Source of the DNA: Candidatus Jordarchaeales archaeon
GTDB lineage: Archaea > Asgardarchaeota > Jordiarchaeia > Jordiarchaeales > Freyrarchaeaceae
Assembly (NCBI GenBank): GCA_038889235.1
Contig: JAWAHN010000003.1
Location: forward strand, 53,703 to 85,702
Direction: 5' to 3'
Length of the DNA: 32,000 nt
Positions 9,869 through 21,624 of this stretch are shown here, one piece after another. The position numbers were made by a program, and so were the translations under genes. The notes below the pieces were generated by a model. The model saw only the letters and a list, made by a program, of their open reading frames with translations, was not told where the DNA came from and ran no database searches. Numbering within the stretch: position 1 is the first letter of the stretch; each line of letters begins with the position of its first letter.

Positions 9869-10678
9869 TCAGACAAGCTGTTCGACAATCATGATCACCC
9901 CCAATAGCGCGAATATTGCCCCAATAATTTTGGCGAGCTTTTCCTCCGGCGCCCTGTTAGCGTAAACCGCCCCAATCCTCCCCCCAACCACAGTTCCCGC
10001 ACCCACAACGAACGCTGCCAAGAAAGCCACGTTCCCATTTAGAGCGTAGCCGAGGGTGCCGGAGAAAGCTGTCACAGCCATTATGAGCGTTGAAGTCCCA
10101 ACCGCCTTGTGAACAGGGTACTTGAGAAGAAATATTAAGACGAGAAGGAACATGACTCCACCCCCAGCACCGAAAACCCCGCTTATAACACCTATCAAGA
10201 AGCCTATGATGAAAGATGCTGCAGCCTGCTTTAACCCGACCTTACTCACGCCACCTACAGTCTCCACGCCGTGCACCACGGAGGCTCCCGAGAAAAGGCG
10301 CAGCTTGCGGCGCACATCCTCCCTCCAAAGCCCGACCCCGCTTATCATTAGGAAAACCCCGAATCCCCCTCCAAGCTCGAGCTCAGGTATGTGTGCTGCC
10401 AGAACGCTGCCAGCCTGCGCTCCGAGTACTGCGCCCAAGGCCAGCCACACACCAGACTTCAAGTCCACGTTCCCACGTCTGTAGTAGACGTACGTCACTA
10501 TTAACGAGGCGATAACGTCCACCGCGAGACTGGTACCAATTGCAGCGTGAATGGGCAGCCCTAGGACCATGGTGAGAGCTGGCACAACAATGAGCACGCC
10601 GCTTGCACCCATTAGCCCAGTAAGACAGCCAGAGCAGAACCCTATTGCAACCGAGGCGACGGAGGAAAGCCAGTCCAT
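9869..10678 (-). CDS. TauE/SafE (TSUP, DUF81) family transporter
   Basis: Two repeats of GxxxGxxGxxGGVxxVP/L plus AIGTSL/AVGTS motifs; about 8 TM segments. Confidence 0.92.
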   Translation of the reverse strand: MDWLSSVASVAIGFCSGCLTGLMGASGVLIVVPALTMVLGLPIHAAIGTSLAVDVIASLIVTYVYYRRGNVDLKSGVWLALGAVLGAQAGSVLAAHIPELELGGGFGVFLMISGVGLWREDVRRKLRLFSGASVVHGVETVGGVSKVGLKQAAASFIIGFLIGVISGVFGAGGGVMFLLVLIFLLKYPVHKAVGTSTLIMAVTAFSGTLGYALNGNVAFLAAFVVGAGTVVGGRIGAVYANRAPEEKLAKIIGAIFALLGVIMIVEQLV

Positions 10679-11386
10679 ACCGCAGCACCCGGAGAGCTCG
10701 CCTAGCACATGTCACCTAGTCAAAAAAAAGCAACTTTAAAAAAGTTCCCACAAGGAAAGCAAAAACGAAAGTGGATGCCAAGGCCTCCACACTACCTTAA
10801 CCCGCACGTTCCCGGCTTCAAGCAGTTGGCTTCAGCTCCTCACCACATTACTCTTCTATGCACTCCAGAACCCCTAGCCAGCCCTTTGCGCGTCTTCAAA
10901 TGAATTACTCCTTAAATACGTGGTCAAAAAGGTTAAGGGGCTTCCTAGGCAAACGTCGCCCACTTGTCTCCTGAAACACTTTGTCACGCTCTCCCGGGCT
11001 GGTGCGGGACGTGTGGCAGGCGACGGCGGCTATGGTGGTAGCGACTGCGTCGAAGTAAGTGTGCTGCCTCTTCTGGTGGGCTGCGATTTCAGCCATATTC
11101 AGTGTCCATATGGACTCAGAAATCCAGTCCATGAGGTGGTCTAGCCACCGGGCAGAACTGTAACCTACTTCTTGCGTTCTTCACCACTCTATCGAGAAGG
11201 GGAGGGTGAATCGTCCCAGAAGCTTCGACTTTAAGTTCGTGCACGTCCATAACCCCCTCCACAGACTGTTAAATGCATAACTTAAAAACTAATTTTGACG
11301 ACTCTCTTTAACAGCTGGTGGGAGCCCAGATTTGTTCTAGTATTATTTATTTAATTAATTACTACTTTTTATTTTTTGAAAAAAGA

Positions 11387-14113: not shown

Positions 14114-16153
14114 TCATCCTAACATGTATATGACTGCGTGTGTGTTTGTGGCGTCAAAGATTATCCGTTCGCATCCTAGTATGTCCTTGTAGTTGCTCCA
14201 TCTTGGTAGTTTTCCAAGTAAGCCGTCGGGATCTCCTGGATACCCGTTCCTCATGAAGTTGCTGATGTAGGCTATGATGGCGTTGGACAATTCAATTCTT
14301 CCAGGTTCATTCTCCTTAGTCCACGCGAAGTTGCAGTAGGGGAATCCTTCACCCTCACCTACGTTGCCGAGGAAGAATGGCACGTCAATCGAGTGACATG
14401 CTCCTAGGAGGAAGTCAAGCGGCTTAGGCTCCTGGTTCCAGCAGAACCTGAAGACGTAAACGTTGCTCTGGTATTTGCTCATAAGCGTTGCAATGAGGTC
14501 TGTCCCCACGGCTTCCCATAGTTTCGTGCTTATCGTTGAAATGAGCTCGTATCCGACTAAGAGCAGCCAGTCAAGGAATGGTGCCAGCTCCTCTGGCCAT
14601 GGGCGTGTGGCTTCCAAGTACTCTGAGAGACTTGGGATGTAGCGTCCAAATGTCGTGTTAAGGTAGCTTGCCATGTCTGAGAGTCCCATTGAGAGGAAGA
14701 ATTTGAACTCCTCCTCGCAGCTACCTATGATCACGGGTACTTTAATGTAGTCTCCGTCTCTTAGTCTAACGTATGGGTTCTTAGCTACAACATACCCGTC
14801 CGCGTAAGTCATGGAGACCACGTTCATTAGCGCCATGAGGTACTTGCCCGCTGAGTCTTCGGGCAGTAATCTGGAAATCAACTCGGGTGGGACTAGACTC
14901 ATTATAGTCTCAATCAGCTTGTTCATCTGGTCAACTAGCTCGGATACTACCGGTTGTATGCTGGGCGGTAGGAGACCTATGAGCAAGTCTGATGGAAGTA
15001 AGCCTGTCATTAGGGCAATCAAGTCTGCTTGTGCTCCACTGTGGTCTCTTACAGCTTCGTAGAGCTCCTTCATGTCTGCGTTTCTCAGCAAGCTTGCAAT
15101 TTCACTCTGACTCATCGCTGCAATTTTGCTCAATGCCTCGTTTATGCTGCTCGCGTTCCCCCTCTTCACCAGCAAGCTGGCCAGCACGAGGTTCGCCGAC
15201 TGCTCAGCTTCCTCAAGCGTCGCCGTCATTATCCCCCCGCTCTCAAGTATGGCCCTGTGAAACAGCGGGTTCCCTTTATCGAAGAACTCCTGCTTAACGT
15301 AGGGCGAGGTTATTAAGGCAAGTATGTTCATGGCGCCAGCAGACTCGCCTGCGACAGTTATGCAGTTGGGGTTGCCGCCGAAGTTCTTTATGTTTTTCTT
15401 CACCCATTCAAGTGCTTTAACTATGTCGAGCAAGCCGTAGTTGCCGGAGTCATTTACCGGGTCACCTGTCTTAAGGGCCGGGTGGTAGAACCAGCCCTCT
15501 ATTCCAACCCTGTAGTTGAATGTAACGACTACGGCGTTGGCCTTACGGGCCAAGTTAGCTCCGTAATACAGCGGCATCGAGCTACTGCCCGATATGTCAG
15601 CTCCACCGTAAACCCATACGAAAACTGGTAGGTTGCTGGGCAGCTTTCCGTCCTTAGCCTTCGGCACCCATATGTTCAAGTAAAGGCAGTCCTCGCTCCC
15701 TATTACGGCACCGGTAGCTATCTCGTCTTCATAGCTCTCGTCTGCGACACACATTATTGATGCAATCTGCATTGGTATGTCGGAAAAGCTTGTCGCATTA
15801 AGCACACCTTGCCAAGGATCAGGGTCCTGTGGTGCTTTCCAGCGTAGCTCGCCCACAGGTGGCTTCGCGTACGGAATGCCAAGCCAAGCATAAGTGTAGT
15901 TGTCCCATTCAAAGCCGCGAACCAGCCCGTACGCTGTCTTCACGAGCAACGGGTCGCTGCTGCTCTGAGAGCTAGAAGTAGACGAGATTACTCTTTGCAG
16001 AAGGATTTGTTGAAGTCTGGAAGGCGTTGCAGCATTTACGAGGATGCCGCCCTCCATACCCACAATGATGGATACACAGAGGAAAACTGCAATCACAGCT
16101 AAGTACTTCCTCCTCACCGGACTCCTCCTCCCAAACACCCCTTTGACGCCCAC
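14114..16153 (-). CDS. Secreted type-B carboxylesterase/lipase (COesterase family)
   Basis: Signal peptide, WLGIPYAKPPVGELRWKAP, SEDCLYLNIW, YGG, NYGLLD, GESAG (Ser), EEE, GACH (His). Confidence 0.95.
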   Translation of the reverse strand: MGVKGVFGRRSPVRRKYLAVIAVFLCVSIIVGMEGGILVNAATPSRLQQILLQRVISSTSSSQSSSDPLLVKTAYGLVRGFEWDNYTYAWLGIPYAKPPVGELRWKAPQDPDPWQGVLNATSFSDIPMQIASIMCVADESYEDEIATGAVIGSEDCLYLNIWVPKAKDGKLPSNLPVFVWVYGGADISGSSSMPLYYGANLARKANAVVVTFNYRVGIEGWFYHPALKTGDPVNDSGNYGLLDIVKALEWVKKNIKNFGGNPNCITVAGESAGAMNILALITSPYVKQEFFDKGNPLFHRAILESGGIMTATLEEAEQSANLVLASLLVKRGNASSINEALSKIAAMSQSEIASLLRNADMKELYEAVRDHSGAQADLIALMTGLLPSDLLIGLLPPSIQPVVSELVDQMNKLIETIMSLVPPELISRLLPEDSAGKYLMALMNVVSMTYADGYVVAKNPYVRLRDGDYIKVPVIIGSCEEEFKFFLSMGLSDMASYLNTTFGRYIPSLSEYLEATRPWPEELAPFLDWLLLVGYELISTISTKLWEAVGTDLIATLMSKYQSNVYVFRFCWNQEPKPLDFLLGACHSIDVPFFLGNVGEGEGFPYCNFAWTKENEPGRIELSNAIIAYISNFMRNGYPGDPDGLLGKLPRWSNYKDILGCERIIFDATNTHAVIYMLG

Positions 16154-16644
16154 TCATTCTCTTTCAATAAATTATAAATTTTACGGTAAACTATGATACC
16201 TTCGTAGGTATATAGAAAAGGTATAGTTGAGTGGGAAGCTAAAGGGAAACCGAGTACTTATTGAAACCGAGTGTTTCTTAGCGCACTTGCGGGAACTGTG
16301 GGCCACTCTTCCTCCTCTCGCTTCCCCCCAGGGGGACGAAGGCGTCCAGCACCGCTTTGCGCGCCTCCTCGACCACCGTCTTCAACCTCTAACTGTTGAG
16401 AGTGCCGAACTTTTGAATTCTCAATCTTCAAGTTTTCTAAGACCTAATTTCACATGTAAAGCGTTAGCGCCGAGCGCCGTGCCTACTAACAAGAGGGATG
16501 ATGGTGGTTCAAGTCATCCAGTGTGCTGGCAAAATGAGAAAGGATTTGTTAGGAAGGGTGCTTCTTTAATGGAGTACCAACTTTCTAGCAGCCTGTGCCC
16601 TAAAAAAGGGACGTTAAGAGCAGGTTTCCGTGCCTTTCTCCGTG

Positions 16645-17439
16645 TTATTCCAGCGGTATTTTTTCTCCAGGTCTTGGAGGAGTCAGCGTGTATGCTTCCT
16701 CGACGCTTACTACTCCCACCTCTCCCAGCAGTGTTCTCTTTTTCCCCTCGTAGACTCCTTTCACCTGGTACGCCATGGCTTCCATTGTAAGCACTGCTGT
16801 CGCCACGTATTCTCCCGGCTTCAGCCTCTCGGCATCCGTTGAACGGGTGCCGAAGACTAGTTTTGTGCCTCCGACGGCCCTCATTGATATCGCTGGAATT
16901 ATGACCGGCTGTCCATCTTCAATTTTGGCTACGACTTTTACCGCGTTCAGCCTGTTAAACTTCTCGGATATGTTTGGGTGCAGCCGTTTTCCGCCTCCAC
17001 TCACAGGGGTAACCATGGCTGCTAGGGTGTCGAGGAGTATGGCTGCTTTAGACTTCGCTCTTTCCACCTGCCAAACTTCTTCAACCTTGATTACGCCGGC
17101 CGCCCTCGCTCCCGTGTAAGCGTTGTACTTGAAGAGCGGGATCTCCGATACGAACTCGTAGTACTTGCCTCTTCTCTCGAACCCTTTAAAGACACCCGTC
17201 GCAACGTAGTTTTCAAGTTTCTCGGTGACGACGCAGGCGCACACCTTGCACCCCTCGGCTAGGTTTTTCCTCGTCTTGAGCATCATGAACTCGCCGAACA
17301 CGAGGGTCTCCTCATCGAAAGCCCTAAGGGATATCACGGGAACAACGTTTGGCTTCCCGTCCCCGCCGGCGGTTGCGAGGAACTTGCCTGCCATCTCAAG
17401 GTTGAAAGCCTCAACAGCTCCGCGGGGGAGAGCCATCAT
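16645..17439 (-). CDS. Tandem FMN-binding split-barrel (pyridoxamine 5'-phosphate oxidase-like) protein
   Basis: Internal duplication: KFLATAGGDGKPNVVPVISLRAFDEETLVFG versus KVVAKIEDGQPVIIPAISMRAVGGTKLVFG. ATGA overlap with the upstream activase. Confidence 0.85.
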   Translation of the reverse strand: MMALPRGAVEAFNLEMAGKFLATAGGDGKPNVVPVISLRAFDEETLVFGEFMMLKTRKNLAEGCKVCACVVTEKLENYVATGVFKGFERRGKYYEFVSEIPLFKYNAYTGARAAGVIKVEEVWQVERAKSKAAILLDTLAAMVTPVSGGGKRLHPNISEKFNRLNAVKVVAKIEDGQPVIIPAISMRAVGGTKLVFGTRSTDAERLKPGEYVATAVLTMEAMAYQVKGVYEGKKRTLLGEVGVVSVEEAYTLTPPRPGEKIPLE

Positions 17440-18377
17440 TTCACCTCCTTTTCAACCTCTCTTTCAACCATTCCGCTCCAAGCGACCTTTCTCACTCCTT
17501 CCTCCTCAGCGACCCGGGCAAGCCTCTCCATCTCCTCTCTCCTCATAAGCCTCGCCCCCTCAAGCGGGAACTTCAACCCAAGGCGCTTGTACTTGGACAC
17601 GCAGAGATTATTGAAGGCGAGTAGGTCGTAGCGTTCAACGGTCGGCAGTTTCTCGACTATGAAGCGTGAAACCGCCCTCACGTTCTCCTCGCTGTCCGTC
17701 ATCCCTGGTATGATCGGGGTCCTAATCCACATGCGCACCCCTTCCTCAGCAAGTCTAACAGCGTTCTCCCATATCAGCCATGGGTCCACCCCTGTAAGCT
17801 CCCTGTGCTTCGCAGAGTCCATGACCTTCAAGTCGTAGAGGACGAGGTCAACCCACTCCAGCAGCTCCTCGAACTTCCCCCATGGGGCGAAACCGCTAGT
17901 GTCTAGAGCCACGTGGACTTCGTGCTCCTTGAGGGATGGGAGCACCTCCACTAGGAAGTCGGCCTGAAGCATAGGCTCCCCTCCTGAGAAAGTGACCCCG
18001 CCTCCAGACGTGTCGTAGAACACTTTGTCGCGCAGCACTTCGTCTACAAGCCTCTCAGGAGTGTACTCGACACCTATGACTTCAAGCGCCCCCGTGGGGC
18101 ACGCCTTCACACAAAGCCCGCACGCGGTGCACTTTCCCCTGTCTATGTGAAGGCCGTCCCTTTCCAGTTTGAGAGCTCCGGCGCTGCAAGCTCTAACGCA
18201 CGCCCTCACACCTATGCATCTCACGTCATACCACACGAGCTCCGGCCTCGGGTTGAGCCCCTCTGGGTTCTGGCACCATAGGCATCGGAGAGGGCAACCC
18301 TTCATGAAAACCGTCGTCCTTATCCCGGGCCCATCCTCCGTGGAGAACCTTTGAACGTTGAACACCACTCCTTTCAA
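17436..18377 (-). CDS. Glycyl-radical enzyme activating enzyme (radical SAM) with ferredoxin-like insert
   Basis: DGPGIRTTVFMKGCPLRCLWCQNPEG (CxxxCxxC), insert CIGVRACVRAC...CTACGLCVKACP, GGVTFSGGEP, DTSG. Confidence 0.96.
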   Translation of the reverse strand: MKGVVFNVQRFSTEDGPGIRTTVFMKGCPLRCLWCQNPEGLNPRPELVWYDVRCIGVRACVRACSAGALKLERDGLHIDRGKCTACGLCVKACPTGALEVIGVEYTPERLVDEVLRDKVFYDTSGGGVTFSGGEPMLQADFLVEVLPSLKEHEVHVALDTSGFAPWGKFEELLEWVDLVLYDLKVMDSAKHRELTGVDPWLIWENAVRLAEEGVRMWIRTPIIPGMTDSEENVRAVSRFIVEKLPTVERYDLLAFNNLCVSKYKRLGLKFPLEGARLMRREEMERLARVAEEEGVRKVAWSGMVEREVEKEVK

Positions 18378-18390
18378 GGGCTTTCCGCTC

Positions 18391-20757
18391 CTACAAGCCG
18401 TGGCAGGCTCTGGCTATTATTTCCTCCTGTTGCTCCTTTCCTAAGGTCACGAAGTACGCGTTGTACCCTGTTACGCGGACTAACAGGTTCCTGTATTCTT
18501 CCGGCTTCCTCTGAGCCTCCCTCAAGACCTCCGGGTTTATCATGTTGACTTGTAGGCTTGTCCCTCCTATCTCGCAGCATGCTAACAGGAGTGCCGCAAG
18601 CTTTTCGAGGTGCTCGGCGTCCCTCACCGACGACGGGTTCAATGTGATCACTTGCGACGCGCCGTTCGGAACGGTTTCGAGCCCAAGCTTTCCGACCGAG
18701 CGTATGACTGCTGTCGGCCCCTTAGAGTCCATTCCTTGGACTGGTTGGACGCCGTTAGACAGGAATTTGCCTCTAGGCCTCCCGTCTGGTGTGGCTGCAG
18801 TTTTTGGGGCGAAGTCTATGTAGTAGTTCCAGGAGAGGTATCCTCCCCTGTACCTTCTCCCGGTTGCAGGCGAAACATGTTTGAACACCTCCTGCGTCCA
18901 GTACCTTGATACCTTTCTGGCTATCTGGTCCACGTAGTCGTCGTCATTACCAAACTTCGGCGCCTTGAACAGAAGCCTTCTTTGGAGTTCCTCGAACCCT
19001 TCAAAGTTCCTCTTTATCGCCTCCACAAGCTCCTCCATTGTTACCTCTTTATCTTCGAAGACAAGTTTCTTGACTGCAGCCAGGCTGTCCGCCACCGTCG
19101 CCAGCCCCACACCCTCAACGGTTATAAAGTTGTAGACCGCTCCTCCCTGCCTAACGTCAATTCCCTTCTCAGCGCACCCGTCCACTAGGGCGGAGAGGTA
19201 TGGAACCGGCTCCCAGCGCGCCCTGATAGCGTCAGCCTCCGAGGCGAGCTCAAGCGTTCTTTCAATGCACTTTTTAAGCTGGGCGAAGTATGCCTCCTCG
19301 AACTCCTCGTAGCTCTTAAACTTCCTCGGGTCCTTAGTTTTTACGCCTATCATTTCGCCGGTCTTCAGGTCGCGCCCCATGCCGAAGACGAGCTCCAAGG
19401 GCTTAGCCAGGTTTATGTTGACGTCCACGGTTCCCGACCTGTCTTTTCCCTGGGCTGTGTTTTCAAGGCATCCTACGACCCCGTAGTCCCAGGCTTCGTC
19501 CTCGGGGATCCCTTCCCAGACGAGCCCCTTTATCGCCTGCTCGTCGAAGTTTATGAGGAAGGGTGAGCCCTGCGTTCGGGCTAAGACCTCGCACATCTTA
19601 AGCAAGAACTCTCTTGATATGTTCTTGTGTATCCTTATGTTGAGTTTCGGCTCGAGCATGTTCATTTCCTCGGCGACCTCGAGGACTAGCCAGGTGAGCT
19701 CGTTCACAGCGTCGCTTCCATCCTTCTTAATTCCGCCTATCGTTATTAGCTGTCCGAACCCGGAGTTAATCCCTTGGTTCCCTATCTTCCCCATGTAGTC
19801 GTAGGCGTAGTTGTGCTTAACCCAGAAGCAGCGAAGCAGCTCCTTCGCCATTTCCTTCGTCAGTCTGCCCTCTTCAATGTCCCTCTTGTAGTACGGGTAC
19901 ATGTACTGGTCGAACCTTCCATGCGACAGCCCGGGTCCCGGGTAACTCTCAGCAGCCATCACGAGCATGTGGGTGAACCAGAGTGACTGGAGTGCCTCCC
20001 AGAAAGTTTCCGCCGGCTCCCATGGGACCTTCCTGCATATCCTGGCTATTTCGAGCAGCTCGCGTCTCCTCTCTTCGTTCTCCTCTTTCTCCGCTAGTCT
20101 CTCAGCTTCCTCAGCGTACCTCTCAGCCAGCCTCTTAACTGCTTCAATGGCTATCACCATGGCTCTAACATAGTCCTTTTTCTCCTTGTCCTCATGCTTC
20201 TCCATCCACTGGAGGAGCTCGTCCCTTATCCCCTTAAACCCTTTCTCGAGAACCTTCCTGTAGTTTGGTATTATGTGCCCGGGTATGGCGCCGCAGTTCA
20301 TGACACCTAGGTCGGATAGTTTAACCATTTTCCTGAACCATTTCTCCTCAGCCTTCCTCCACTTTTTAGCCTCTTTCTTTGTGAAGCACTTTGACAGGGC
20401 GGTGTTGAAGTTGAAGCCAACTATGAGTTCGCCGTCAAGTATTCTCACCGGGAGGTATTCCTCTACTACCTTCCTGAAGAATATAGCCCTCCTGACCGGT
20501 AGGCTCTCTTTCCAGAACCCTTCGGGGGGCTCGACTTTAACGGCTATCGTCTTAAGTGTGTCTCTTATAGCTGGAAGGAAGGGAAACAACTCGGGAACAA
20601 CTCCCCAGTCGTGGTAGGAGAAAACCTCGTCCCAAGGCGTCCCCGTGGTGTAAGCGATCACCTCGTTCGTTGGACGCCTTTCAAAGGAAAAGTACTCGTC
20701 CCTGAGTTTCCTGACCCTCTCGGAAAGTTTCTCCGAGGGAGACCAAATCTTCATCAT
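18391..20757 (-). CDS. Glycyl radical enzyme (PFL2/PflD-like, substrate unknown)
   Basis: 788 aa. Cys loop VVGCLEN (C430), Gly loop LVRVTGYNAYF (G764), plus GRFDQYMYPY, PKFGNDD and ATPDGR. Confidence 0.96.
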   Translation of the reverse strand: MMKIWSPSEKLSERVRKLRDEYFSFERRPTNEVIAYTTGTPWDEVFSYHDWGVVPELFPFLPAIRDTLKTIAVKVEPPEGFWKESLPVRRAIFFRKVVEEYLPVRILDGELIVGFNFNTALSKCFTKKEAKKWRKAEEKWFRKMVKLSDLGVMNCGAIPGHIIPNYRKVLEKGFKGIRDELLQWMEKHEDKEKKDYVRAMVIAIEAVKRLAERYAEEAERLAEKEENEERRRELLEIARICRKVPWEPAETFWEALQSLWFTHMLVMAAESYPGPGLSHGRFDQYMYPYYKRDIEEGRLTKEMAKELLRCFWVKHNYAYDYMGKIGNQGINSGFGQLITIGGIKKDGSDAVNELTWLVLEVAEEMNMLEPKLNIRIHKNISREFLLKMCEVLARTQGSPFLINFDEQAIKGLVWEGIPEDEAWDYGVVGCLENTAQGKDRSGTVDVNINLAKPLELVFGMGRDLKTGEMIGVKTKDPRKFKSYEEFEEAYFAQLKKCIERTLELASEADAIRARWEPVPYLSALVDGCAEKGIDVRQGGAVYNFITVEGVGLATVADSLAAVKKLVFEDKEVTMEELVEAIKRNFEGFEELQRRLLFKAPKFGNDDDYVDQIARKVSRYWTQEVFKHVSPATGRRYRGGYLSWNYYIDFAPKTAATPDGRPRGKFLSNGVQPVQGMDSKGPTAVIRSVGKLGLETVPNGASQVITLNPSSVRDAEHLEKLAALLLACCEIGGTSLQVNMINPEVLREAQRKPEEYRNLLVRVTGYNAYFVTLGKEQQEEIIARACHGL

Positions 20758-21017
20758 TCAATCACAACCAAAGTCTCTTTCACCTCAATCTTTGCCTCTT
20801 CATATTTTTAAGCGCTTTCACGGGAAGCAGCTTTATAAGTGGTTTAAAGCCTGTGTGCTCTCTAGCGCCCCCTGAAACCAGTCTGACCGTGTATCACTAG
20901 CCTGAGCACCAGCCTTTTGAGCCCTTCCTGGAGTAACCGCCTGCCTTATGTTCCCTTAAACGCCACGCTCACCCGTTTAGCTTTTAAATGCATATTACAA
21001 TAGTGTATTTCACGGTG

Positions 21018-21245
21018 ATGTTATTGTCTGTCATTACGATTAGAATTCCGGACGAGCTGAAGGAAAGAATGCGCCGAGTGAAGGTCAACTGGAGCGAAGA
21101 GATAAGGAGATTTATCATCCAGCGTGTCGAGGAAGAGGAGCGTAGGGAGAACTTGGAGAGGGCACTTGAAATGTTGAAAGGGAGGAAAGGTGTCGAGAGA
21201 GGTTTCTCGGCGTTGTCGGTGAGGGATGACCGTGATAGTGGTTGA
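21018..21245 (+). CDS. vapB: VapB-type (ribbon-helix-helix) antitoxin
   Basis: SVITIRIPDELKERM...VNWSEEIRRFI, ending SVRDDRDSG; overlaps the downstream PIN gene. Start is ATG 21018 or TTG 21024. Confidence 0.85.
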   Translation: MLLSVITIRIPDELKERMRRVKVNWSEEIRRFIIQRVEEEERRENLERALEMLKGRKGVERGFSALSVRDDRDSG

Positions 21246-21624
21246 CGCTTCAGCCCTAGCTAAGGTCCTCCTGCAAGAGGAGGGTTGGGAGGGCGTTGAA
21301 CTAACAGCTAGGACAGCCACACTTGACCACGCGCTGATTGAAGCGCTTAACGCCGTGTGGAAGGCGGCAATTCTAGGAAAACTAGGGAAGGATGACGCCA
21401 TAGAGAGAGTTGAAGCCCTGAAGCTCATTAGCAGGGGGCTACTCGTTTTCAAAGCCCAGGAACACTTTAACCGCTCGATGGAAATAGCTCTCGCAGAAAA
21501 ACTCACCATTTATGACGCGGTCTACATAGCCCTTGCTGAGCAGCTCGGAGCAGAACTTCAAACCTCAGACACTAAACAGTTCTATGCAGCTAAAAAGTAT
21601 GTAAAAGCGAAACTCATAAAGTAG
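21226..21624 (+). CDS. vapC: VapC PIN-domain ribonuclease toxin
   Basis: VVDASAL, EALNAVW, TIYDAVYIALA, TSD: acidic PIN residues present. Confidence 0.92.
   Translation: MTVIVVDASALAKVLLQEEGWEGVELTARTATLDHALIEALNAVWKAAILGKLGKDDAIERVEALKLISRGLLVFKAQEHFNRSMEIALAEKLTIYDAVYIALAEQLGAELQTSDTKQFYAAKKYVKAKLIK

Follow-up and report, generated by a model that had tools for sequence, protein, structure and literature searches.

Glycyl radical enzymes (GREs) carry out chemically hard anaerobic reactions, and the B12-independent glycerol dehydratase (GD) and propanediol dehydratase (PD) are among the described systems closest to the one considered here. According to a recent review (Imrich et al., 2026) a C-x-E motif is retained by all GRE eliminases and isomerases, and in GD Glu435 deprotonates the C1 hydroxyl and His164 protonates the leaving C2 hydroxyl. 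The only accessory subunits listed in that review are the HiPIP-like or rubredoxin-like proteins of 4-hydroxyphenylacetate decarboxylase (HPAD), benzylsuccinate synthase (BSS) and (1-methylalkyl)succinate synthase (MASS), whose role is described as enigmatic, with redox or radical control being proposed; neither a flavoprotein nor an FMN partner is mentioned there. Whole clades of GREs and all archaeal GREs resembling pyruvate formate-lyase (PFL) are still without a function, and that of Archaeoglobus fulgidus PflD is debated between GD and MASS (Imrich et al., 2026). In the current analysis we have studied a stretch of 32,000 nucleotides, referred to as the window, from a Candidatus Jordarchaeales archaeon (assembly GCA_038889235.1, contig JAWAHN010000003.1, positions 53,703 to 85,702). 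Three co-oriented open reading frames (ORFs) on its minus strand fill positions 16645-20757 (4.1 kb) and encode a GRE, its activating enzyme (activase) and a tandem split-barrel protein (SB). We read these genes as a single cassette, complete in itself and mobile by horizontal transfer, that encodes a GRE system not yet characterised, in which SB would be an accessory or redox component of the GRE, and assign to this reading a probability of about 60%.

The GRE (P0001; 788 aa; 18391..20757, minus strand) matches the PFAM families PF02901 (525.7 bits) and PF01228 (92.7 bits). A PFL-like barrel, a C-terminal glycine-radical domain, a catalytic Cys and a cognate radical-SAM activase encoded beside it place the protein in the GRE superfamily. 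The Cys loop reads YGVVGCLENT, with C430 as the catalytic Cys and E432 completing a C-x-E motif, and the loop RVTGY carries the radical glycine, G764. An adjacent Cys-Cys pair, which is the hallmark of PFL, is absent from the GRE, and GCLE is found instead. The activase (313 aa; 17436..18377, minus strand; TTG start) scores 343.2 bits with TIGR02494 against a cut-off of 174.35, and carries a CX3CX2C motif, CPLRCLWC, while residues 53-100 form a ferredoxin-like insert that contains two Cys clusters; it reaches none of the substrate-specific activase equivalogs of NCBIfam. SB (P0003; 264 aa; 16645..17439, minus strand) has been assigned from an AlphaFold model, Foldseek comparisons and motifs. 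The stop codon TAG of the GRE gene is followed, after 13 nt, by the TTG start of the activase gene, whose own TGA overlaps the ATG of the SB gene as ATGA; the sequence GGAGGTGA lies immediately upstream of this ATG. These junctions, the two loops and the lack of a Cys-Cys pair had all been given in the original prediction, which was made by a model from the DNA letters and their ORFs, and are confirmed here.

A scan of one genome per species has identified 384 relatives of the GRE, the best 80 of which were used for the taxonomic and SB counts given here. An SB gene lies right after the activase gene in 70 of the 80 loci, and the contigs of the remaining 10 end 0-508 nt past the activase. The three genes are also the only ones common across phyla, as revealed by neighbourhood enrichment over 83 loci, and SB homologues of Nezhaarchaeota, of a Spirochaetes metagenome-assembled genome (MAG) and of another contig are all found in the order GRE-activase-SB with unrelated flanks. 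On these counts SB is co-inherited with the GRE essentially without exception, and the condition that would have refuted the original prediction, a partner gene not conserved beside homologous GREs, does not apply. Pairwise identities of GRE and SB over the 70 loci are closely correlated (r=0.94, Mantel p=0.001), with SB evolving much faster (median identity 33%) than the activase (53%) and the GRE (59%). The partial correlation of SB with the GRE given the activase is 0.77 and that of SB with the activase given the GRE is 0.06, which is a weak measure because the longer GRE alignment is a less noisy clock.

The same association has been found in wider searches. Of 201 genomes of Asgard archaea, 133 encode a GRE of some kind and 78 have a match to the SB profile. 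The strong SB matches, 76 in number, all belong to GRE-bearing genomes, and the 55 GRE-bearing genomes of this sample without SB carry other GRE clades. A profile search of 1.84 billion representatives has revealed 781 SB-family clusters, the best 150 of which (88-337 aa) include no fusion of SB to a GRE or an activase. Three divergent SBs picked from the cluster list are each encoded just after an activase. All 20 second-tier SBs examined from Asgard genomes lie beside an activase, 17 of them also with a GRE of a sister clade. The sister-clade GRE is only 43% identical to that of the window and keeps both the loop VGCLENT..DRSGTVDVN and the SB partner, usually in the order GRE-activase-SB; in one genus the order is GRE-SB-(SCP2)-activase.

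The archaeal hosts among the best 80 are Jordarchaeales, Nezhaarchaeota/Thermoproteota, Thor-, Hel-, Heimdall- and Promethearchaeota, Thermoplasmata and Methanolliviera, and the bacterial ones are Dehalococcoidia and Anaerolineae (Chloroflexota), Geothermincolia and other Actinomycetota, Acidobacteriota, Thermodesulfobacteriota and Leptospirales. Clade members also occur in Hermodarchaeota and Thorarchaeota. The closest relatives of the GRE are encoded in Jordarchaeales MAGs (92% and 90% identity). In a maximum-likelihood tree of the GREs bacteria and archaea are interleaved, and the GREs of the window and of two other Jordarchaeales nest with full support among those of Nezhaarchaeota/Thermoproteota (85-87% identity); the GRE of Jordarchaeum, which belongs to the same order as the window, forms a separate long branch (59% identity). 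The cassette has evidently moved between phyla, and here between thermophilic archaea. The clade had been predicted to be archaeal, which does not agree with the position of Dehalococcoidia, Anaerolineae, Geothermincolia, Leptospirales and Acidobacteriota among the archaea of the tree. Few unassigned GRE clades are as conserved and as widespread as this one, whose hosts are organisms usually met in sediments, the subsurface and hot springs. The source assembly (2.14 Mb, 95% complete) encodes only one GRE, and DNA of the window is also found in the hot-spring metagenomes of two studies, so that the organism most likely lives in hot springs. The GREs of a Thermoplasmata MAG (L015) and of Methanolliviera hydrocarbonicum (L019) are near-identical (tree branches 0.006 and 0.0015), which reflects either a very recent transfer or a binning error in one of the MAGs.

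The AlphaFold model of SB, built with 24 homologues (pLDDT 90.9), is made up of two β-barrel halves, each of which resembles HupZ, Swol_0183 (3IN6) and the FMN-binding protein of Desulfovibrio vulgaris (1AXJ) with Foldseek TM scores of 0.75-0.80. The N-terminal half (residues ~1-130) keeps the motifs KFLAT, PNVVP, K55-T-x-x-N59-L and a YNAY loop, and the C-terminal half (~150-264) keeps AYQVKG and a PPxPGxxI tail. In Jordarchaeum (L083:7525-7944; L143-L146) a single barrel of 137-162 aa follows the GRE and activase genes in place of the tandem SB and passes the PF01243 cut-off (42.2-42.7 bits). When aligned to the two tandem halves it carries KFLAT, PNVV, K-T-K-K-N-L and a KYNAY loop, seen only in the N-terminal half of the tandem protein, together with AYQVKG, an N-terminal EKF helix and a C-terminal P.PGKRIA tail, which correspond to the C-terminal half. 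Since the single barrel unites the motifs of both halves, the tandem SB is read from these alignments as a fused, sub-functionalised pseudo-dimer of the single-barrel protein, that is, a fused copy of a homodimer with its motifs divided between the halves. The ligand sites of dimeric split-barrel proteins are built from both subunits, and on this analogy one complete ligand site is predicted per SB chain, with FMN as the most likely ligand. The K-T-x-x-N-L motif resembles what we take to be HKTEANV in the D. vulgaris protein. SB contains neither Cys clusters nor an NAD(P)H-binding module. Of the predicted dedicated flavoprotein partner, the dedication is borne out by the 70 of 80 loci and by the early ends of the other 10 contigs; that SB is a flavoprotein is predicted from the fold alone, and we hold that it may well be one. 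Stand-alone single barrels with 168-174 bits to the N-terminal half of SB also exist in one Asgard family (L140-L142, family f13), where neither a GRE nor an activase is encoded within 6 kb.

The placement of the GRE with respect to characterised GREs is based on bit scores to chains of the Protein Data Bank (PDB) and on NCBIfam cut-offs, and not on a full phylogeny. All the substrate-specific NCBIfam equivalogs are missed about two-fold by the GRE, and likewise by 20 diverse members of its clade; the scores against the respective cut-offs are 502.9/1100 for HypD, 502.6/1000 for HpsG, 432.5/1050 for CutC, 426.3/1000 for HpfG, 399.6/1109 for Escherichia coli PflD, 339.8/1100 for indoleacetate decarboxylase, 285.3/1150 for HPAD and 112/994 for PFL. 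The PFL2-3 subfamily model is missed as well (573/678). The best solved chains, namely CutC, GD, A. fulgidus PflD, PD, HypD, IseG, HpsG, HpyG/HpzG, IslA and YbiW/PflD, score 350-430 bits with the GRE, and BSS alpha (4PKC, 240 bits) and MasD (9O8U, 272 bits) are among the weakest of the PFL2-type matches, whereas the scores within the clade are 1100-1800 bits (57-92% identity) across two domains of life. By these scores the GRE belongs to no characterised GRE clade, as had been predicted. The C430-L-E432 motif is invariant in 20 clade members, and the clade is marked by the signature loop GCLENT..DRSGTVDVN.NL, which is unchanged in the sister clade in spite of the low overall identity. The corresponding motif is GCVE in GD, PD, CutC, HpyG and A. 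fulgidus PflD, and GCTE in IseG. IslA, for which CMSP had wrongly been given in the original prediction, is also of the C-x-E type, as are the IseG sequence in our alignment and both sets of residues given in the review, Cys468/Glu470 in IslA and Cys466/Glu468 in IseG (Imrich et al., 2026).

Alignment further reveals that H161, C430, E432 and Y640 of the GRE correspond to H164, C433, E435 and Y640 of GD, and that H161 also matches His166 of PD. Because the C-x-E motif (E432) and H161 are retained, the chemistry may be that of an elimination or isomerisation. In such a scheme the activase would install a radical on G764 that is passed to C430; the resulting thiyl radical would abstract hydrogen from a carbon bearing, or next to, a hydroxyl; and the Glu would deprotonate the hydroxyl with the His protonating a vicinal O-leaving group, giving 1,2-elimination or isomerisation. 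S282, Y339 and D447 of GD, which we take to bind glycerol, are replaced by G276, G335 and V444 in the GRE, all three invariant in the clade, and for this reason the substrate would be larger than glycerol or differently decorated, perhaps a glycerol derivative. Of the sulfonate triad R189/Q193/R678 of IslA, placed by alignment offset only, Q193 falls on H161 and R189 on A157, and R637 could match R678. A sulfonate, which was one of the predicted substrates, is unlikely because His161 would occupy the position of the sulfonate-binding Gln of IslA and IseG. In our reading the GRE acts in the manner of an eliminase or isomerase that cleaves C-O bonds, and its substrate would be neither plain glycerol nor a sulfonate. 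A TauE gene (9869-10708) was considered as a hint of sulfonate use and set aside; it is 8 kb off and is not conserved with the cassette.

The sequence also reads as one three-gene unit from its borders, given the A/T-rich boxes before the GRE gene, the T run after the SB gene and the gap that follows it. A candidate archaeal promoter region (20802..20839, minus strand) contains two TATA-like A/T-rich boxes, cttataaag and ttaaaaatat, 45-80 nt 5' of the GRE ATG, with GAGGTG at 20781-20786. A T6 run about 40 nt 3' of the SB stop codon (16602..16607, minus strand) is a candidate archaeal terminator, and the next gene begins 490 nt further on behind an A/T-rich box of its own. A sigma-70 promoter and terminator scan gave chance-level results, the model being unsuited to an archaeal host. 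No gene for a small Fe-S subunit was found in the flanks or within the operon, which leaves no room for one, in agreement with the original prediction. Positions 16812-20746 are covered, in seven pieces, by contigs from a sediment metatranscriptome that are 95-99% alike; one of the pieces spans the activase/SB junction, and neither flank is covered. These contigs fit transcription of all three genes in a related strain. No cassette reads were found in 3% of a hot-spring metatranscriptome run of a source study or in a second metatranscriptome, which is too little for a test. A 162-aa minus-strand ORF directly upstream of the GRE gene (21021-21509) was rejected as a member of the operon, being the low-complexity antisense of a PIN-domain (VapC-like) gene that lies just upstream of the operon on the opposite strand (21226-21624, plus strand; PF01850, 37.4 bits). 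A small plus-strand ORF upstream of the PIN-domain gene and overlapping it (20988-21245) could encode its antitoxin.

Strict co-inheritance, the fast evolution of SB and the fact that no other neighbour is conserved together suit a GRE-specific accessory or redox role of SB better than that of a general pathway enzyme. SB is probably such a component of the GRE rather than a freely exchangeable enzyme, and it might serve as electron donor or acceptor for the reaction, control the radical state or feed the activase. The gene overlap and the activase-SB pairs favour a link to the activase, and the GRE-SB gene orders and the partial correlation favour a link to the GRE. Several observations weigh against a transcribed cassette with SB as a flavin-type partner of the GRE. 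The flanking genes differ between lineages, and a few loci depart from the usual arrangement: two (L120 and L121) have activase-SB next to a GH2 gene without an adjacent GRE, one (L046) has GRE-SB without an adjacent activase, and in L075, one of the ten loci on contigs that end early, a DUF6790 gene starts after the activase; the MAG of L075, which is incomplete, yielded no SB. The sister clade has Met in place of Y640, a residue that this clade shares with GD. PF01243 matches the N-terminal half of SB only weakly (25.5, below the cut-off of 28.1); the nearest solved relative, HupZ, is deposited under that name only, with no flavin in the PDB titles returned; and what we take to be the flavin loop of the D. 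vulgaris protein, T31-W32-N33, would read P-V-I in SB. A predicted complex of GRE residues 50-788 with SB residues 5-264, built with alignments and with the GRE N terminus cut for size, scored 0.26 against a mark of 0.32, which speaks neither for nor against contact between the two proteins. The RNA evidence consists of assembled contigs of a related strain, for which carry-over of DNA is possible, and diverged flanks would miss the 95% threshold.

In a stronger form of the accessory role, which we consider doubtful, SB would be an obligatory redox subunit that makes a PFL-like GRE catalyse a net redox reaction, for example one in which a backbone of the glycerol type loses a hydroxyl, alkoxy or phosphate group reductively, with electrons arriving by way of a flavin. 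Class III ribonucleotide reductase offers a comparison, as it needs an external reductant. A GRE of this kind would represent a new mechanistic class, the first with a flavin-type subunit.

An ordinary pathway function of SB is rather unlikely. On this view SB would be a reductase or oxidase that depends on flavin, would act on a product or precursor of the GRE such as an aldehyde, enal or imine, and would be held in the operon by economy only. Enzymes that process the product are often encoded at known GRE loci, many small reductases have the split-barrel fold (the F420 reductase 3f7e and FMN-binding proteins being examples), and genes for aldehyde:ferredoxin oxidoreductase and acyl-CoA dehydrogenases are present near some of the cassettes. 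The linkage of SB is, however, far tighter than that of these or other neighbours and has persisted through transfers among more than 10 phyla, in which the other neighbours change. Its fast evolution (33% identity against 59% for the GRE) would be unusual for an enzyme acting on the same conserved metabolite, and an enzyme of this type would be expected less readily from a protein lacking an NAD(P)H-binding module.

The possibility that SB is a dedicated electron donor of the activase, a surrogate of flavodoxin that reduces its [4Fe-4S] clusters, is judged to be quite improbable. The halves of SB do resemble the D. vulgaris FMN-binding protein, which is a presumed electron carrier, and the SB gene usually abuts or overlaps the codons of the activase gene. 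Genes inserted into the cassette (acyl-CoA dehydrogenase, creatininase-family) split the GRE from the activase and not the activase from SB, and the activase-SB pairs of L120 and L121 have no adjacent GRE; the activase of E. coli PFL moreover uses flavodoxin (Imrich et al., 2026). Set against this are the genus of the sister clade with GRE-SB-(SCP2)-activase and the GRE-SB pair of L046, together with the divergence of SB, which tracks the GRE and not the activase (partial r 0.77 against 0.06) by what is a weak measure. A donor of this kind would also be a private reductant, and we know of no other GRE system that needs one.

That the GRE is a divergent B12-independent glycerol or diol dehydratase is very unlikely, even though GD (423 bits) and PD (415 bits) are among its best solved matches and share the four aligned residues. 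The GRE is only about one third identical to these enzymes, has exchanged the three presumed glycerol-binding positions throughout its clade, and is accompanied by a partner of the SB type, without which GD and PD function. The neighbourhood nevertheless includes a true glpK adjoining the cassette in one lineage, of 70% identity, where the glycerol kinase scores 739 bits with TIGR01311 against a cut-off of 590. It occurs in two arrangements, divergent upstream (L011-L016; Dehalococcoidia) and, as a second and more distant glpK type, downstream in Euryarchaeota UBA186 (L017) and Methanolliviera (L019). In all three Jordarchaeales contigs the cassette is followed on the same strand by a gene of the carboxylesterase family (679 aa, secreted type; window 14114-16153, minus strand; L007:13061-15091; L008:4823-6979; 84-87% identity), which is not there in Nezhaarchaeota. 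Lying behind its own A/T-rich box, this gene is probably transcribed separately, and it stands among lipase, GH1 and acyl-CoA synthetase genes. The glpK and other flanking genes, along with a wider pocket whose catalytic residues are like those of GD, make a glycerol derivative (glycerol phosphate, or a glyceryl ether or ester) a lead for the substrate, though only a lead. A lipid head group or backbone had been predicted as the substrate, and glycerol or a lipid backbone stays a weak lead from that proposal, its sulfonate part being unlikely.

Zhang et al. (2021; PMC8163825) have annotated GREs of Hermodarchaeota and Thorarchaeota as alkyl- or benzylsuccinate synthases (Ass/Bss) on the basis of an identity of 29-33%, the presence of only one Cys and an activase that carries additional clusters. 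All three of these features are common to every non-PFL GRE. The present clade has members in both phyla, and acyl-CoA dehydrogenase genes lie near some cassettes, but a role of the GRE as an alkyl- or benzylsuccinate synthase that activates hydrocarbons by addition to fumarate, as has also been proposed for A. fulgidus PflD, is extremely improbable. The GRE matches BSS alpha (240 bits) and MasD (272 bits) less well than the eliminases (350-430 bits), keeps the C-x-E motif and catalytic His of the latter, and is encoded without the HiPIP-like or rubredoxin-like small subunits that BSS and MASS have; A. fulgidus PflD (2f3o) itself, with only 418 bits, is not in this clade. Alkane activation, raised in the original prediction, is likewise unlikely.

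Some further features of individual cassettes have been observed. A 435-aa acyl-CoA dehydrogenase is encoded between the GRE and the activase in seven loci of a Dehalococcoidia/Acidobacteriota lineage (L026, L029, L030, L031, L044, L061 and L068); its best NCBIfam match is the acryloyl-CoA reductase AcrC, with 251 bits against a cut-off of 640. A creatininase-family gene takes the same place in L065 and L076. In a Dehalococcoidia MAG the cassette is directly followed by a second, different GRE of 968 aa with an N-terminal SCP2 lipid-carrier domain (L065:13066-15969, plus strand), and frames of 989 aa that match PFL-like proteins are present in two Asgard genomes (G014 and G025). In one Asgard genus of the sister clade (g26; L135-L137 and L132) a 120-aa gene of the SCP2 sterol-carrier type lies between SB and the activase. 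SCP2 was rejected as a general neighbour of the cassette, being confined to this genus and to the one fused second GRE. A GH38 gene is found near the sister-clade cassette of L136 and a GH2 gene near that of L120, which belongs to a different genus. The thorarchaeotal neighbours (ABC transporter, ThiN, GNAT, Memo and HisRS) were likewise rejected as functional partners, as they reflect lineage synteny.

No description of the cassette was found in literature searches for GREs partnered by a split-barrel protein, a flavoprotein or FMN, or for GREs of Nezhaarchaeota, and no GRE has been described with a component of the split-barrel type. The role of SB could show radicals and electrons being supplied, quenched or used in a manner new to this superfamily. 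The evidence against the Ass/Bss assignment of this clade matters for claims of hydrocarbon degradation by Asgard archaea. Being compact (4.1 kb, three genes) and derived from a thermophile, the cassette is a practical target for reconstitution.

With GD (DhaB1/DhaB2 of Clostridium butyricum, 1R8W/1R9D) and PD (Roseburia inulinivorans, 5I2A) the cassette shares the PFL2-type fold, an activase of its own with a ferredoxin insert, the C-x-E motif and the His, as well as the Tyr at GD position 640; it differs from them in its identity of about one third, in its split-barrel partner and in the clade-specific GCLENT..DRSGTVDVN loop. The C-x-E motif is also common to HypD (6VXC), CutC (9F3W, 5FAU), IseG/IslA (5YMR, 7KQ3), HpsG (6LON), HpyG/HpzG (8ID1, 8IOF) and the YbiW/PflD isomerases (8ID7, 8ID0). 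These enzymes and the GRE of the window probably follow the same radical logic of hydrogen atom transfer, Glu-assisted deprotonation and loss or shift of a vicinal leaving group; unlike the GRE of the cassette, none of them is known to have a flavin-type partner. A. fulgidus PflD (2F3O), the only structurally studied archaeal PFL-like GRE, is of the PFL2 type with GCVE, and its score of only 418 bits places it in a different clade from the GRE of the window.

Small proteins encoded with a GRE, as SB is, are known in HPAD gamma, BSS beta and gamma, and MASS beta, gamma and delta, each needed by that GRE only. Those subunits are HiPIP-like or rubredoxin-like Fe proteins, whereas SB, a putative subunit, is a split barrel without Cys clusters. 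In fold its halves (24-27% identity) superpose on the minimal homodimeric split barrels HupZ of Streptococcus pyogenes (5ESC/7KPZ) and the FMN-binding protein of D. vulgaris (1AXJ/1WLK), the size of which is that of the single-barrel SB of Jordarchaeum. Unlike these two proteins, SB would be a fused, asymmetric pseudo-dimer, and it is distinguished by its YNAY, AYQVKG and PPxPGxxI motifs and by its tie to a GRE operon.

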